Sequence record: PZ154895.1
Source: a phage
Strand: one strand, 5' to 3'
DNA: 64,000 bases
Shown: piece after piece, positions 21,638 to 45,261 of the stretch
How the letters are laid out: each line of letters opens with the position of its first letter
How positions within the stretch are numbered: position 1 is the stretch's first letter
Program-made: the position numbers and the translations under genes
Notes under the pieces: generated by a model
The model's input: the letters and a program-made list of their open reading frames with translations, nothing else
The model's database searches: none
What the model was told of the DNA's origin: nothing

Positions 21638-24334
21638 ATGAAAGAATTTTATATCTCTATCGAAACAGTCGGAAATAATATTGTTGAGCGTTATATTGAT
21701 GAAAACGGAAAGGAACGTACTCGTGAAGTAGAATATCTTCCGACTATGTTTAGGCATTGTAAGGAAGAGTCAAAGTACAAAGACATTTACGGTAAAAATT
21801 GCGCTCCTCAAAAATTTCCATCAATGAAAGATGCACGAGACTGGATGAAGCGAATGGAAGACATCGGTCTCGAAGCTCTTGGTATGAACGATTTTAAACT
21901 CGCTTATATCAGTGATACATATGGTTCAGAAATTGTTTATGACCGAAAATTTGTTCGTGTAGCTAACTGTGACATTGAGGTTACTGGCGATAAATTTCCT
22001 GACCCAATGAAAGCAGAATATGAAATTGATGCTATCACTCATTATGATTCAATTGACGACCGTTTTTACGTCTTTGATTTGTTGAATTCAATGTACGGTT
22101 CAGTATCAAAATGGGATGCAAAGTTAGCTGCTAAACTTGACTGTGAAGGTGGTGATGAAGTTCCTCAAGAAATTCTTGACCGAGTAATTTATATGCCATT
22201 TGATAATGAGCGTGATATGCTCATGGAATATATTAATCTCTGGGAACAGAAACGACCTGCTATTTTTACTGGTTGGAATATTGAGGGATTTGACGTTCCG
22301 TATATCATGAATCGCGTTAAAATGGTTCTTGGTGAACGTAGTATGAAACGCTTCTCTCCAATCGGTCGAGTAAAATCTAAACTAATTCAAAATATGTACG
22401 GTAGCAAAGAAATTTATTCTATTGATGGCGTATCTATTCTTGATTATTTAGATTTGTACAAGAAATTCGCATTTACTAATTTGCCATCATTCTCTTTGGA
22501 ATCAGTTGCTCAACATGAAACCAAAAAAGGTAAATTGCCGTACGATGGTCCTATTAATAAACTTCGTGAGACTAATCATCAACGATACATTAGTTATAAC
22601 ATTATTGACGTAGAATCAGTTCAAGCAATTGATAAAATTCGTGGGTTTATCGATCTAGTTTTAAGTATGTCTTATTATGCTAAAATGCCTTTTTCTGGTG
22701 TAATGAGTCCTATTAAAACTTGGGATGCTATTATTTTTAACTCACTGAAAAGTGAACATAAGGTTATTCCTCAACAAGGTTCGCACGTTAAGCAGAGTTT
22801 TCCAGGCGCATTTGTGTTTGAACCTAAACCGATTGCCCGTCGATACATTATGAGTTTTGACTTGACATCTCTGTATCCTAGCATTATTCGTCAGGTTAAC
22901 ATTAGTCCTGAGACTATTCGTGGACAGTTTAAAGTTCATCCAATTCATGAATATATCGCAGGAACAGCTCCTAAGCCAAGTGATGAATATTCTTGTTCTC
23001 CGAATGGATGGATGTATGATAAGCACCAAGAAGGTATCATTCCAAAGGAAATCGCTAAAGTATTTTTCCAGCGTAAAGATTGGAAAAAGAAAATGTTCGC
23101 CGAAGAAATGAATGCCGAAGCTATTAAAAAGATTATTATGAAAGGTGCAGGGTCTTGCTCAACTAAGCCAGAAGTTGAACGATATGTTAAGTTCAGTGAT
23201 GATTTCTTAAATGAATTATCGAATTACACCGAATCTGTTCTTAATAGTCTGATCGAAGAATGTGAAAAAGCAGCTACACTTGCTAACACAAATCAGCTGA
23301 ACCGTAAAATTCTTATCAACAGTCTTTATGGTGCTCTTGGTAATATTCATTTCCGTTACTATGATTTGCGAAATGCTACTGCTATCACAATTTTTGGTCA
23401 AGTTGGTATTCAGTGGATTGCTCGTAAAATTAATGAATATCTGAATAAAGTGTGTGGAACTGATGGTGAAGATTTCATCGCAGCAGGTGATACTGATTCG
23501 GTATATGTTTGTGTAGATAAAGTAATTGAAAAAGTAGGTCTTGACCGCTTTAAAGAACAAAATGATTTAGTTGAATTCATGAATCAGTTTGGTAAGAAAA
23601 AGATGGAACCTATGATTGATGTTGCATATCGTGAGTTATGTGATTATATGAATAACCGCGAGCATCTGATGCATATGGACCGTGAAGCTATTTCTTGCCC
23701 TCCACTCGGTTCAAAGGGTGTTGGTGGATTTTGGAAAGCGAAAAAACGTTATGCTCTGAACGTTTATGATATGGAAGATAAGCGATTTGCTGAACCACAT
23801 CTAAAAATCATGGGTATGGAAACTCAACAGAGTTCAACACCAAAAGCAGTGCAAGAAGCTCTCGAAGAAAGTATTCGTCGTATTCTTCAGGAAGGTGAAG
23901 AGTCTGTCCAAGAATACTATAAGAACTTTGAGAAAGAATACCGTCAACTTGACTATAAAGTTATTGCTGAAGTAAAAACCGCGAACGATATAGCAAAATA
24001 TGACGATAAGGGTTGGCCAGGATTTAAATGTCCGTTCCATATTCGTGGTGTGCTAACTTATCGTCGAGCTGTTAGCGGTTTAGGTGTAGCTCCAATTTTG
24101 GATGGAAATAAGGTAATGGTTCTTCCGTTACGTGAGGGAAATCCATTTGGTGACAAGTGTATTGCTTGGCCGTCGGGCACAGAACTTCCAAAAGAAATTC
24201 GTTCTGATGTACTGTCTTGGATTGACTACTCAACTTTGTTCCAAAAATCGTTTGTTAAACCGCTTGCGGGCATGTGTGAATCGGCAGGTATGGACTATGA
24301 GGAAAAAGCTTCGTTAGACTTCCTGTTTGGCTGA
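21638..24334 (+). CDS. 43: DNA polymerase gp43 (family B, 3'-5' exonuclease)
   Basis: 898 aa; exo and pol motifs (DIE, YGG, DTDS); translational operator hairpin upstream. Confidence 0.97.
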   Translation: MKEFYISIETVGNNIVERYIDENGKERTREVEYLPTMFRHCKEESKYKDIYGKNCAPQKFPSMKDARDWMKRMEDIGLEALGMNDFKLAYISDTYGSEIVYDRKFVRVANCDIEVTGDKFPDPMKAEYEIDAITHYDSIDDRFYVFDLLNSMYGSVSKWDAKLAAKLDCEGGDEVPQEILDRVIYMPFDNERDMLMEYINLWEQKRPAIFTGWNIEGFDVPYIMNRVKMVLGERSMKRFSPIGRVKSKLIQNMYGSKEIYSIDGVSILDYLDLYKKFAFTNLPSFSLESVAQHETKKGKLPYDGPINKLRETNHQRYISYNIIDVESVQAIDKIRGFIDLVLSMSYYAKMPFSGVMSPIKTWDAIIFNSLKSEHKVIPQQGSHVKQSFPGAFVFEPKPIARRYIMSFDLTSLYPSIIRQVNISPETIRGQFKVHPIHEYIAGTAPKPSDEYSCSPNGWMYDKHQEGIIPKEIAKVFFQRKDWKKKMFAEEMNAEAIKKIIMKGAGSCSTKPEVERYVKFSDDFLNELSNYTESVLNSLIEECEKAATLANTNQLNRKILINSLYGALGNIHFRYYDLRNATAITIFGQVGIQWIARKINEYLNKVCGTDGEDFIAAGDTDSVYVCVDKVIEKVGLDRFKEQNDLVEFMNQFGKKKMEPMIDVAYRELCDYMNNREHLMHMDREAISCPPLGSKGVGGFWKAKKRYALNVYDMEDKRFAEPHLKIMGMETQQSSTPKAVQEALEESIRRILQEGEESVQEYYKNFEKEYRQLDYKVIAEVKTANDIAKYDDKGWPGFKCPFHIRGVLTYRRAVSGLGVAPILDGNKVMVLPLREGNPFGDKCIAWPSGTELPKEIRSDVLSWIDYSTLFQKSFVKPLAGMCESAGMDYEEKASLDFLFG

Positions 24335-24347
24335 TAGAATAAATCTA

Positions 24348-24369
24348 GGGACCTCCGGGTCCCTTTTTC
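24348..24369 (+). terminator. rho-independent terminator after gene 43
   Basis: GGGACC-TCCG-GGTCCC + TTTTT. Confidence 0.7.
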
Positions 24370-24451
24370 ATACAAGTAATATAAATCTATACTTAGGAAA
24401 AATAGATGATTCTAGGTCCTGTAAATTCATTAAAAATTTTTTCACAAAACT

Positions 24452-24481
24452 GTTTACATCCCCGTTCTTCCATGGTACTAT
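24452..24481 (+). promoter_or_regulatory. early promoter
   Basis: GTTTAC, 18-nt spacer, TGgTACTAT. Confidence 0.5.
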
Positions 24482-24515
24482 ACAACTATCAACTGATATG
24501 GATTTGGAGAATAAA

Positions 24516-24752
24516 ATGAAAATTGTTTATGGTTGTTTAGCAGTGTGTTTAGTTGCATTAGCAACTGTTCCATTTATTGATATTGAAAATGACACTCAGA
24601 ATGTGATTGAATCTAATACTATTATTCACATGAATGGTAAAGTATCAACAAAAATTGATGATAATCTTCATATGAATACTAATGGAACGTTGGGTGTTCA
24701 ATTAGGTAATACCTGTGTAAGCACTACTGGAGTAATTACTACTTGTATTTGA
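24516..24752 (+). CDS. small secreted/membrane protein (78 aa)
   Basis: In-frame ATG inside ORF 24327..24752, preceded by early promoter and GGAG; N-terminal hydrophobic segment. Confidence 0.45.
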   Translation: MKIVYGCLAVCLVALATVPFIDIENDTQNVIESNTIIHMNGKVSTKIDDNLHMNTNGTLGVQLGNTCVSTTGVITTCI

Positions 24753-24762
24753 GGAAATTATT

Positions 24763-25143
24763 ATGAAAATCGCTATTTTGGTTATTGCATTAGGTCTTAC
24801 TGGCTGTGTAGCTCAAGGACCAGTAGTAAATCAGTCTGATGTAGGAAAAATTGTAAACTGTTCAAGCAAATTTTATAATCCTAACGTCAAGTGTTATAAA
24901 GAAGCTCCAAAACAGACAGTAGAACAAATGCAGGCGAATTTTGACGAAGCTATTCGTCCAGATGAATCTGCTCAAGCATATCGTAATTCAGATGTGATTA
25001 CACGTGAAGAAAAAATTGAAAACTACTGTGCTGAACTTTGGGCAAATTGGGCTAATAATTACCAATGGCGTACCGGTAAAAATGCTCCGATGGAGTATGT
25101 AGTAAATTCTTATAATTCATGCGTAAAAAATTTGACTAAGTGA
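24763..25143 (+). CDS. putative lipoprotein (126 aa)
   Basis: Signal peptide with lipobox LTGC; GAGGA SD. Confidence 0.55.
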   Translation: MKIAILVIALGLTGCVAQGPVVNQSDVGKIVNCSSKFYNPNVKCYKEAPKQTVEQMQANFDEAIRPDESAQAYRNSDVITREEKIENYCAELWANWANNYQWRTGKNAPMEYVVNSYNSCVKNLTK

Positions 25144-25150
25144 GGAAAAC

Positions 25151-25402
25151 ATGGAAACTTTAGTAGCAGGTTCAATTTTTATGGTTTTAGTTTCAGGCGT
25201 GTTGGCTATTATTATATACATGCTTCCATGGTTCATCGCCTTGATGCGTGGGTCAAAATCGACAGTAGGAATCTTTTTCACATCTTTACTGTTTAACTGG
25301 TCAATCATTGGTTGGTTTATTACATTTATTTGGTCAATTGCAGGTGAAACTAAAAAATCTGTACAGCAAAATCAAGTAATTATCATCAGAGAGAAGGAAT
25401 GA
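25151..25402 (+). CDS. imm: immunity (superinfection exclusion) membrane protein Imm
   Basis: 83 aa, two hydrophobic helices; position between 43 and 42 as in T4. Confidence 0.85.
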   Translation: METLVAGSIFMVLVSGVLAIIIYMLPWFIALMRGSKSTVGIFFTSLLFNWSIIGWFITFIWSIAGETKKSVQQNQVIIIREKE

Positions 25403-25548
25403 AAAGCAAAATTTTAGCAGTATTGCTTTTAATCTTGATGATTATAATAAGTATATACTATAGCGTAACAGTTCCTTGTATGATTCCAACGCTTATTATA
25501 GGGTGGAGTTTATTACTGTTACAAGTTAAATATGAATGCATCAATTGA
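25399..25548 (+). CDS. small membrane protein (49 aa), below ORF-track cut-off
   Basis: ATGA overlap with imm stop; entirely hydrophobic. Confidence 0.4.
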   Translation: MKSKILAVLLLILMIIISIYYSVTVPCMIPTLIIGWSLLLLQVKYECIN

Positions 25549-25555
25549 GGTTTAA

Positions 25556-26296
25556 ATGATTAACGATTATATGACAGTTGAAGAAATCCGTCTTGATTTG
25601 GGTCTTGCATTAAAGGAAAAAGATTTCGTAATTGATAAAACCGGTGTTAAAACTATTGAAATTATTGGTGCATCATTTGTAGCAGATGAACCTTTTATTT
25701 TTGGCGCTCTTAATGATGAATACATTCAACGTGAACTTGAATGGTATAAGTCTCAAAGTCTGTTTGTTAAAGATATTCCAGGTGAAACGCCGAAGATTTG
25801 GCAGCAGGTAGCATCTTCTAAAGGCGAAATTAACTCGAATTATGGTTGGGCCATCTGGTCAGAAGATAACTATGCCCAGTATGATATGTGTTTAGCTGAA
25901 CTTGGTCAAAATCCTGATTCTCGACGCGGTATCATGATTTATACTCGTCCATCCATGCAGTTTGACTACAATAAAGATGGTATGTCAGATTTCATGTGTA
26001 CGAATACAGTACAGTACCTGATTCGTGATAAGAAAGTCAATGCAGTAGTAAGCATGCGTTCAAATGACGTAGTCTTCGGATTCCGTAATGATTATGCGTG
26101 GCAAAAATACGTACTAGATAAATTAGTATCTGATTTGAATGCAGGTGATTCAACTCGTCAGTATAAAGCAGGTTCCATTATATGGAATGTCGGGAGCCTT
26201 CATGTGTATTCCCGTCATTTTTATTTGGTTGACCATTGGTGGAAAACTGGCGAAACTCATATTGCGAAAAAAGATTATAACGGTGAGTGGAAATGA
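25556..26296 (+). CDS. 42: dCMP hydroxymethylase gp42
   Basis: 246 aa; near-identical to T4 gp42. Confidence 0.95.
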   Translation: MINDYMTVEEIRLDLGLALKEKDFVIDKTGVKTIEIIGASFVADEPFIFGALNDEYIQRELEWYKSQSLFVKDIPGETPKIWQQVASSKGEINSNYGWAIWSEDNYAQYDMCLAELGQNPDSRRGIMIYTRPSMQFDYNKDGMSDFMCTNTVQYLIRDKKVNAVVSMRSNDVVFGFRNDYAWQKYVLDKLVSDLNAGDSTRQYKAGSIIWNVGSLHVYSRHFYLVDHWWKTGETHIAKKDYNGEWK

Positions 26297-27135
26297 TTCA
26301 ATTCGTAATTCCAAGCTATCAACGCGGAGGGGCAGTTTCTGCCCTTGATATGTTTCCGACTGATTATGAACCTCATATTGTAGTACGTGAACACGAAGAA
26401 AAAGCTTATTATGACGCTTACGGGTCTAGAGCTAAAATTATAACTATTCCTGATGATGTTAATGGAATTGCTGGTACTCGTAAAGCAATTACTGATATGT
26501 ATGCAGGTCAACGAATCTGGATGATTGATGATGATACTACTATTCGTATGAGTTCAATGCGAAAGAAAGATGATCGTCGCTGTGTAGATAAAATTAATCA
26601 ATTAACTCGTGAACAGTTCTATGAATTGATTCAATACGTGGAAGATGCCATGGATTGCGGGTATTATCACGGCCATGCTCGTCTACCTATTTTTAAAATT
26701 ACTTCATCTTGGGGTAATTATCGTGAAAATTCATACGGATTCACGAATACCTGGTATGATTTAGGAAAACTTACAACAGAACAAATTGGGTATGGAAAAA
26801 TTGATTTATGCGAAGATATGTATGCATTTCTCAATTTAATTAATCAAGGTTATCCGCATTTGGCCTTGTTCAAATATCTAGTTGTATCTGGAAAAGCGCA
26901 AGCTCCTGGCGGATGTAGTTCAATTCGTAGTAATTCAAAACATAATAGAGCTCTTGAGCAAATCAATAGAGAGTTTCCAGAGCAAGCTCGTTGGAAAACT
27001 TCTAATATTGAAAAACGAAAATCGTTGGGTGAAGAAGACGAGCCATTAAAGGTTCTTCGCATGTGTGTTTCGCGCAAAGAAAAGTCAGAAGCATTTCATA
27101 AGTTTAATGCTATTCATCCAATAGCAGTTGATTAA
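26293..27135 (+). CDS. ba-gt: putative DNA glycosyltransferase with DXD motif; candidate beta-alpha-glucosyltransferase
   Basis: Occupies the b-gt slot between 42 and uvsX but does not resemble T4 BGT; motif WMIDDDTTI; ATGA overlap with gene 42. Confidence 0.6.
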   Translation: MIQFVIPSYQRGGAVSALDMFPTDYEPHIVVREHEEKAYYDAYGSRAKIITIPDDVNGIAGTRKAITDMYAGQRIWMIDDDTTIRMSSMRKKDDRRCVDKINQLTREQFYELIQYVEDAMDCGYYHGHARLPIFKITSSWGNYRENSYGFTNTWYDLGKLTTEQIGYGKIDLCEDMYAFLNLINQGYPHLALFKYLVVSGKAQAPGGCSSIRSNSKHNRALEQINREFPEQARWKTSNIEKRKSLGEEDEPLKVLRMCVSRKEKSEAFHKFNAIHPIAVD

Positions 27136-31333: not shown

Positions 31334-31627
31334 ATGAAAAAATTTATCTTTGCTGCAATTTTTGCTTTATCTTCTTGCGCTGCTCAGCCTACTATGGCAG
31401 GCTATGATAAAGATTTGTGTGAGTGGTCTATGACTGCAGATCAGACTGAAGTTGAAACTCAAATTGAAGCCGATATTATGAATATCGTTGAGCGTGATCG
31501 TCCTGAAATGAAAGCTGAAGTGCAAAAACAACTTAAGTCTGGTGGTGTAATGCAGTATAATTATGTTCTGTATTGCGATAAAAACTTTAATAATAAAAAT
31601 ATCATCGCTGAAGTGGTAGGTGAGTAA
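31334..31627 (+). CDS. sp: periplasmic protein with signal peptide, Sp (spackle)-like
   Basis: 97 aa; cleavable signal peptide; position in 61.x cluster. Confidence 0.6.
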   Translation: MKKFIFAAIFALSSCAAQPTMAGYDKDLCEWSMTADQTEVETQIEADIMNIVERDRPEMKAEVQKQLKSGGVMQYNYVLYCDKNFNNKNIIAEVVGE

Positions 31628-45000: not shown

Positions 45001-45261
45001 ATGAAATATGTTAATCGTTCTATCGCGGCAATAGTATTAGCAGTATCTTTAGTAGGATGTACTGATGCTGATAATGCAACCAAAGTTCTGTCTTCAAGTG
45101 GTTTTACTAATATTGAAATCACTGGATATAATTGGTTCGGTTGCTCTGAAAATGATTTCCAACATACTGGATTTCGTGCTATTGGACCTACCGGGCAGAA
45201 AGTAGAAGGAACAGTATGTTCTGGTCTTTTCTTCAAGGATTCGACTATCCGTTTTAAATAA
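45001..45261 (+). CDS. putative lipoprotein (lipobox LVGC)
   Basis: ORF track 44989..45261 (TTG); ATG at 45001; signal peptide plus lipobox; terminator downstream. Confidence 0.5.
   Translation: MKYVNRSIAAIVLAVSLVGCTDADNATKVLSSSGFTNIEITGYNWFGCSENDFQHTGFRAIGPTGQKVEGTVCSGLFFKDSTIRFK

Follow-up and report, generated by a model that had tools for sequence, protein, structure and literature searches.

The DNA analyzed here is a stretch of 64,000 nucleotides (nt) from a phage (record PZ154895.1; called the window below), and our subject is a group of four small early genes that lies in it between the replication genes 43 and 42. One of these genes codes for the superinfection immunity protein Imm, and the gene directly upstream of it codes for a predicted lipoprotein of 126 amino acids (aa) that is the Imm.1 protein of T4 (UniProt P18057), an already catalogued and conserved neighbor of imm. 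From 21638 to 27135 the DNA shares 98% identity with phages such as vB_EcoM_SA21RB and Shfl2, and the window is a segment of a Tequatrovirus (T4-type) genome.

A preliminary description of the window had singled out a 78-aa protein with a hydrophobic N-terminus and a 126-aa protein with the lipobox LTGC between gene 43 and imm, and the coordinates of both open reading frames (ORFs) as well as the Cys15 lipobox are confirmed by our analysis (Table 1). The early promoter of their own that had been placed around position 24452 is also there, in the form of a T4-type promoter at 24452-24481 that carries two mismatches relative to the T4 early consensus GTTTAC-N14-gtggTAttaT, as given in the annotation of the Mosigvirus SA35RD record. 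Expressed in sigma-70 terms, this element reads TTTACA-17-TACTAT with an extended -10 TG. T4 keeps both the promoter and the terminator-like hairpin found here, and alignment shows the promoter hexamers to be identical.

All four small genes are preceded by a strong ribosome-binding site, and the intergenic gaps from the 78-aa ORF to gene 42 are, in order, 10, 7, -4 and 7 nt. Because of this tight spacing, the four genes are expected to be co-transcribed and in part translationally coupled. They are the promoter-proximal part of an early operon that runs from the promoter through the 78-aa ORF, imm.1, imm and a 49-aa ORF to gene 42 and onward. All four products are predicted to be directed to the envelope, which agrees with the earlier proposal of four consecutive envelope-directed early proteins behind one early promoter. 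A search of the window for paralogues gave none.

Table 1. Genes and predicted regulatory elements of the imm.1-imm locus in the window
Feature	Position	Strand	Details
Gene 43	21638-24334		upstream of the small-gene group
Intrinsic-terminator-like hairpin	24347..24364	+	AGGGACC-TCCG-GGTCCCT, then TTTTT; ends the gene 43 transcript; terminator scan
T4-type early promoter	24452..24481	+	GTTTAC(A), 14-nt spacer, atggTActaT; promoter scan
78-aa ORF	24516..24752	+	phrog_4189; ribosome-binding site GGAG 7 nt upstream
CLVALA(T)-coding segment	24546..24567	+	inside the hydrophobic N-terminus of the 78-aa protein; hairpin 24550-24567; unit duplicated in 85-aa variants
126-aa ORF (imm.1)	24763..25143	+	Pfam DUF5481, phrog_1754; ribosome-binding site GAGG
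imm	25151..25402	+	83 aa, two hydrophobic segments; Pfam PF14373, phrog_1039
49-aa hydrophobic micro-ORF	25399..25548	+	phrog_3610; ATGA overlap with the imm stop codon
Gene 42	25556-26296		next after the 49-aa ORF

Identity and export signal of Imm.1

The assignment of the 126-aa protein is supported by a match to PF17578 (DUF5481) that scores 239.2 bits (cut-off 27) over profile positions 1-103 of 103, by a match to phrog_1754 (5e-44), and by 99% identity to the Imm.1 proteins of T4 and T6. The homologous gene is annotated as imm.1 in the records of Shfl2 and T4. The gene in the window and its T4 counterpart share their place between 43 and imm, the promoter and the lipobox. They differ in that the lipobox is LAGC in T4 and LTGC here, a conservative replacement of Ala by Thr at position -2, and in that the protein of the window has one more C-terminal residue.

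The family is narrow. In 502 Tequatrovirus records Imm.1 is conserved at 95% identity or more, and an exhaustive HMMER search of 1.84 billion representatives returned six clusters, all from T-even phages, and no bacterial homologue. PHROG 1754 also takes in lipoproteins of 147-148 aa from Salmonella phage Melville (Gelderlandvirus) and Klebsiella phage JD18 (Jiaodavirus). Within Tequatrovirus, purifying selection on imm.1 is very strong, with 12-15 synonymous versus 0-2 nonsynonymous changes and a ratio of nonsynonymous to synonymous rates (dN/dS) of 0.00-0.03, which is lower than that of gene 42.

Profile searches of Pfam, NCBIfam and PADLOC with the 78-aa and 126-aa proteins gave nothing above threshold except DUF5481. 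Matches of the small proteins to YidC, to a type I S subunit and to DRT fell far under the curated cut-offs and were discarded. In the RefSeq record of T4 and several derived records, imm.1 (NP_049661.1; L002 5637-6014) is named ‘iduronate sulfatase’. We found no sulfatase domain in the near-identical Imm.1 of the window, whose sole profile match above threshold is DUF5481, and this label is very probably a propagated annotation error. We found no mention of DUF5481 in the literature and no paper that gives Imm.1 a function. The possibility had been raised that both ORFs are imm.1-type genes with a known non-envelope function; half of this holds, since the 126-aa ORF is indeed imm.1, but it is a gene without a known function of any kind.

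The N-terminus of Imm.1, MKIAILVIALGLTGC, conforms to a PROSITE PS51257-type lipoprotein rule, which calls for a positively charged n-region, an uncharged h-region, the lipobox [LVI][ASTVI][GAS]C and a Cys within residues 15-35. The segment ILVIALGLTGC ends at Cys15, Lys2 supplies the charge of the n-region, and Val occupies position +2. The predicted parts are thus a signal peptide of residues 1-14, the lipobox LTGC and a lipidated Cys15. A match to the Pfam model LPAM_1 is weak (E = 0.44), which is usual for so short a motif.

The export signal is retained over large evolutionary distances. The lipobox Cys is kept in seven of eight divergent homologues (23-44% identity), and the eighth, encoded on contig L012, has a plain signal peptide with the site AHA|S in place of the lipobox. 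Export therefore appears to be preserved in all eight lineages. In E. coli, a lipoprotein that lacks Asp at position +2 is sent to the outer membrane. The +2 residues of the lipobox-bearing homologues are V, V, G, A, V, S and Q, and never D. Because Imm.1 has Val at this position and no inner-membrane retention signal, its sorting to the outer membrane is expected by the +2 rule.

A pair of C-terminal cysteines is present, by inspection, in all eight homologues and is column-invariant in the seven closer ones. The AlphaFold model of Imm.1 places a low-confidence tether of about 35-65 residues after Cys15, followed by a confident helical hairpin (residues 81-125) that bears Cys89 and Cys120. 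The exceptional homologue on L012 (positions 718-1086; Logan SRR30535852 contig) is a DUF5481 protein whose N-terminal half is Tequatrovirus-like and whose C-terminal half is Mosigvirus-like. Phe replaces the lipobox Cys, the AHA|S sequence forms a signal-peptidase-I site, and the product would be a soluble periplasmic version; its gene sits after frd.3 and not after gene 43.

Data from T4 bear on expression and fitness. The supplements of PMC9697503 record T4 imm.1 as early at both the RNA and the protein level, the protein having been seen by proteomics. In the CRISPRi-ART supplement of PMC11879866, T4 imm.1 is scored ‘Not Fit’ (-0.77), so that knock-down carries no fitness cost in standard infection. 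The gene is dispensable for lytic growth of T4, as expected for a competition or accessory function.

Linkage of imm.1 to imm across T-even phages

Every lineage that has a gene of the Imm.1 type carries it directly upstream of imm and in the same orientation; these are six T-even lineages or more, and the genomic contexts number three. The order 43 > imm.1 > imm > 42 is found in Tequatrovirus (T4, Shfl2), in two uncultured T-even lineages (L009 and L011), in Melville and in JD18. The Mosigvirus order is dmd > promoter > imm.1 > imm > sp, the pair having moved to the dmd-61 region with an early promoter of its own. Contig L012 has the order frd.3 > imm.1 > imm > 49-aa ORF. In Mosigvirus vB_EcoM_SA35RD (L003 2437-3530; RB69-type), the imm.1-like gene, imm and sp are contiguous, which brings all known or suspected exclusion genes together in one cluster.

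Lineage L009 is informative about how the pair evolves. Its gp43 and gp42 are 85% and 93% identical to those of the window, but its Imm.1 and Imm are only 40% and 37% identical, and detectable nucleotide similarity ends at position 24524 of the window and restarts at 25418. It follows that imm.1 and imm diverge, or are exchanged, together as one block. In the T6 record AP018814, a misc_feature ‘attL’ is annotated at 24507-24546 (L017 908-947), between 43 and imm.1, in what is a strictly lytic phage; this label looks like an artefact of a prophage-finding pipeline.

The 83-aa neighbor of Imm.1 matches Pfam PF14373 (Imm_superinfect) with 58.1 bits against a cut-off of 27.9, has hydrophobic windows at residues 1-32 and 46-65, and is 96% identical to T4 Imm. 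Downstream of it, the 49-aa ORF encodes a full-length member of phrog_3610 (E = 1.9e-25), a catalogued family with no function assigned. This ORF is also present in T4 with 90% identity (NC_000866.4 26227-26376; L002 5228-5377, minus strand), where the RefSeq feature table omits it. It is kept from T4 to JS98 and VR26 with the invariant pattern P-x-M-I-P-T...W..L.Q...C.N and a dN/dS of 0.23-0.44, and it follows the occurrence of imm more faithfully than imm.1 does. The annotators of VR26 named its phrog_3610 ORF ‘T4 gp42.1-like’.

The imm gene is classically considered nonessential. In the T4 CRISPRi-ART data (PMC11879866, supplement file 15), however, knock-down at the imm ribosome-binding site is scored ‘Fit’ (1.40, p = 0.02). 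The score may stem from disturbance of the coupled 49-aa ORF or of gene 42, and not of imm itself.

The 78-aa accessory gene and other features of the window

When T4 and the window are aligned base by base over this locus, the sole structural difference is a 247-nt indel that contains the 78-aa ORF. The indel is bounded by ATGAAAAT, the eight bases with which the 78-aa ORF and imm.1 both begin. The ORF occurs in 326 phage records at 74-100% identity. About 322 of the 502 Tequatrovirus records (64%) carry it, and the remaining ~36%, T4 and T6 included, are without it. Locus comparisons did not find it in T4, in T6, or in the divergent lineages that bear Imm.1, L009 and L011 among them.

We consider the 78-aa ORF a real gene because of its presence in 326 records, its dN/dS of 0.18-0.37 against four homologues, and the confident beta domain in its AlphaFold model. 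This domain comprises about 45 aa in six strands, with a predicted local distance difference test (pLDDT) score of about 88, and the C-terminal region holds C67 and C77. The match to phrog_4189 is full-length (E = 2.7e-27; residues 1-78 versus profile positions 1-71 of 71), and that family has no assigned function. Neither the family searches nor the fold searches (Pfam, NCBIfam, PADLOC, PDB profiles and fold comparison) yielded a clue to the function of the protein.

The N-terminus of the 78-aa protein has Lys2, an uncharged hydrophobic stretch of 19 residues (I3-I21) and an A-L-A|T site; acidic residues follow. Judged from these features, the beta domain should face the periplasm, with the N-terminus (residues 1-21) serving as either a cleaved signal peptide or a signal anchor. 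Variants of 85 aa, which are common in other phages, contain a perfect 21-nt tandem duplication that makes the hydrophobic segment seven residues longer. This added length may point towards an uncleaved anchor, which the sequence fits as well as it fits a cleaved signal peptide. The hairpin-forming 21-nt unit (85-aa example: L005 2501-2758) is expanded further in one 89-aa variant.

One UniRef cluster of these proteins carries the name ‘Lipoprotein’, an identity that we reject. A LAAC sequence is confined to variants that carry the 21-nt duplication, and an N-terminal Cys is missing altogether from the Dhakavirus-type homologues (P0016-P0018). The name is probably due to a LAAC lipobox that some of the duplications created fortuitously. 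No canonical lipobox was found in the 78-aa protein of this phage, in which the Cys of VYGC (Cys7) is too near the N-terminus and LAVC has Val at -1.

The Dhakavirus dhabil has a 61%-identical copy of the 78-aa ORF near e.1/e/denV, away from imm. This copy adjoins a 228-aa ORF that, by eye, has no signal-like N-terminus. The copy is flanked by the same boundaries as in the window (GGAGAATAAAATGAAA...TGAGGAAA-TATTATG; GGAGAATAAA-ATG and TGAGGAAA-TATTATG). The ORF therefore behaves as a mobile cassette, since it occurs at a different locus with the same boundary sequences. A scan of IMG/VR for further loci gave four only. Insertion is the more parsimonious history because the outgroups lack the ORF, and in about two thirds of Tequatroviruses the cassette, made up of the ORF and its downstream ribosome-binding site, would have entered ahead of imm.1. 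The 78-aa ORF is thus probably a mobile accessory gene in its own right and not an obligate part of the Imm system.

Two further genes in the window deserve mention. The gene after 42 (26287-27135) codes for a 282-aa beta-glucosyl-HMC-alpha-glucosyltransferase (phrog_842; Pfam TAGT), versus the 351-aa beta-gt in T4, which implies DNA glucosylation of the T2/T6 type in this phage; the gene starts with GTG and shares 10 nt with the end of gene 42. At 45001-45261 (+), an 86-aa ORF (phrog_902) has the canonical lipobox MKYVNRSIAAIVLAVSLVGC with Thr at +2 and represents a second predicted phage lipoprotein in the window.

Possible roles of Imm.1

The 78-aa and 126-aa ORFs are each 100% identical to annotated genes of published phages. 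Both genes are already known as sequences in catalogued families, and what is new here is a specific and testable hypothesis, in which the lipoprotein, Imm and the micro-protein form a module that varies as a block. We tentatively favor the reading that Imm.1, tethered to the outer membrane and facing the periplasm, serves Imm as a partner or adjunct and acts after adsorption on something common to all T-even phages. Imm.1 would be exported by Sec, lipidated and cleaved, and then sorted by the Lol system to the inner leaflet of the outer membrane, where its flexible tether would hold a disulfide-stapled helical domain in the periplasm. It would work with or parallel to Imm in the inner membrane, possibly also with the 49-aa micro-protein, against a post-adsorption step of superinfecting T-even phages. 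The blocked step might be transit of the tail tube or of DNA through the periplasm, on the model of periplasmic Spackle, which blocks the gp5 lysozyme.

The two established exclusion proteins of T4, Imm (PF14373) and Spackle (gp61.3; PF25676), are early, small and envelope-located, as is Imm.1. Spackle is exported and helical and contains a disulfide (PMC7677548); in the Imm.1 model, too, the exported C-terminal domain is helical, and its Cys pair is conserved. Unlike soluble Spackle and the polytopic inner-membrane protein Imm, Imm.1 is predicted to be lipid-anchored, and we detected no similarity of sequence or fold between Imm.1 and either of them. An exclusion phenotype is known for Imm and Spackle; for Imm.1 it is putative. 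The Spackle profile was matched by neither the 78-aa nor the 126-aa protein, and the true sp gene of the window lies about 6 kb away (31334-31627, 151 bits).

Several observations weigh against a partnership of Imm.1 with Imm. Dhakavirus JS98 and Gaprivervirus VR26 have imm together with the 49-aa ORF but no Imm.1-type gene, and Imm occurs in 1011 phage records versus 657 for Imm.1; Imm.1 is therefore an adjunct at most. Plasmid-borne imm alone reportedly gives immunity (Lu and Henning, 1989), so that Imm function does not strictly depend on Imm.1. That two genes are neighbors in a crowded early operon is a weak sign of shared function. The outer-membrane location of Imm.1 is inferred from the +2 rule of E. 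coli only, the AlphaFold model is of low confidence overall (pLDDT 63.7) with no informative fold match, and the exclusion role is plausible on grounds of sequence and gene context. An exclusion role for Imm.1 was raised in PMC5885020 as speculation.

There is a serious, if somewhat unlikely, rival: Imm.1 may be an envelope protein unrelated to exclusion, for example one that stabilizes the envelope of the infected cell against lysis from without, modulates the timing or the inhibition of lysis, or counters a host defence associated with the envelope, with its adjacency to imm reflecting co-regulation only. Export signals, early expression and dispensability would fit any conditionally useful envelope function, and Imm functions in lineages without Imm.1. 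Mere co-regulation sits less well with a lipoprotein-imm pair that has remained intact through at least two relocations, that co-diverges as a block between conserved replication genes, and that in Mosigvirus directly adjoins sp, the second known exclusion gene, as well. This conserved linkage makes the exclusion role suggested in the preliminary description plausible for the lipoprotein; the 78-aa ORF, with its separate Dhakavirus locus, is not tied to imm in this way. We regard as very unlikely a four-part exclusion module, richer than that of T4, made up of the 78-aa protein, Imm.1, Imm and the 49-aa protein. The four are all predicted to be envelope-directed, are tightly packed behind one early promoter, and in seven of seven Tequatrovirus records with comparable coordinates the 78-aa ORF stands directly upstream of imm.1. 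Three of the four genes are, however, already present in T4, so that the cassette described as broader than that of T4 exceeds it by the 247-nt indel with the 78-aa ORF, the 126-aa ORF being imm.1 and the 49-aa ORF having its T4 counterpart. The 78-aa ORF is moreover missing from about 36% of Tequatrovirus records and from all other lineages that bear Imm.1, lies away from imm in Dhakavirus, which is without imm.1, and evolves much more freely than Imm.1 (dN/dS 0.18-0.37 versus at most 0.03).

T5 Llp and the Cor proteins of T1 and phi80 are phage outer-membrane lipoproteins that block FhuA and thereby exclude other phages. By analogy, Imm.1, the 78-aa protein or both might inactivate the outer-membrane receptor of the phage, which would spare progeny from adsorbing to debris and stop the adsorption of competitors. 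Imm.1 resembles Llp and Cor in being a small phage-encoded lipoprotein, predicted to reach the outer membrane and made early in infection, and the action of Llp on FhuA is a precedent. T-even phages differ in their receptors, with OmpC and lipopolysaccharide used by T4, Tsx by T6, and FadL or OmpF by others. A specific receptor binder should co-vary with the adhesin, but Imm.1 does not follow receptor specificity: it is 99% identical between T4 and T6 and nearly uniform across the 502 records despite these differences. Fold searches and profile searches of PDB sequences with Imm.1 and the 78-aa protein, in a library expected to contain T5 Llp (PMC9586334 deals with its structure), found no relatives among solved structures. 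Classical work, in addition, places T-even exclusion after adsorption (T4 annotation note; PMC7677548). Receptor masking, one of the two roles first proposed for the cassette, is thus disfavored, and we judge it highly improbable. That the ORFs are accidents of AT-rich sequence, with chance hydrophobic N-termini and a chance lipobox, might be suspected from the 40 ORFs of 30 aa or more counted in 5 kb and from the abundance of small ORFs in AT-rich phage DNA. This idea is refuted by the hundreds of conserved homologues, the purifying selection on all of the genes and the detection of T4 Imm.1 by proteomics, together with the strong ribosome-binding sites and the retention of the lipobox at 23-44% identity.

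A post-adsorption partnership of Imm.1 with Imm can be extended to a bolder and quite unlikely form, in which Imm.1, Imm and the 49-aa micro-protein make up one trans-envelope machine that, in the periplasm, recognizes or obstructs the tail tube or DNA conduit of an incoming T-even phage. If this were true, the three-part machine would supply the missing components behind the ability of Imm to leave superinfecting DNA stranded in the periplasm, and the hypervariable imm.1-imm block would set which competitors are excluded by each T-even lineage.

On the mechanism by which Imm blocks DNA entry, the T4 annotation speaks only of an unspecified ‘membrane change’. If a lipoprotein partner takes part, T-even exclusion would gain an outer-membrane or periplasmic component beside Imm and Spackle. 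In that case, the divergent imm.1-imm block could be part of the reason for mutual exclusion among related T-even groups, which would be relevant to the design of phage cocktails.

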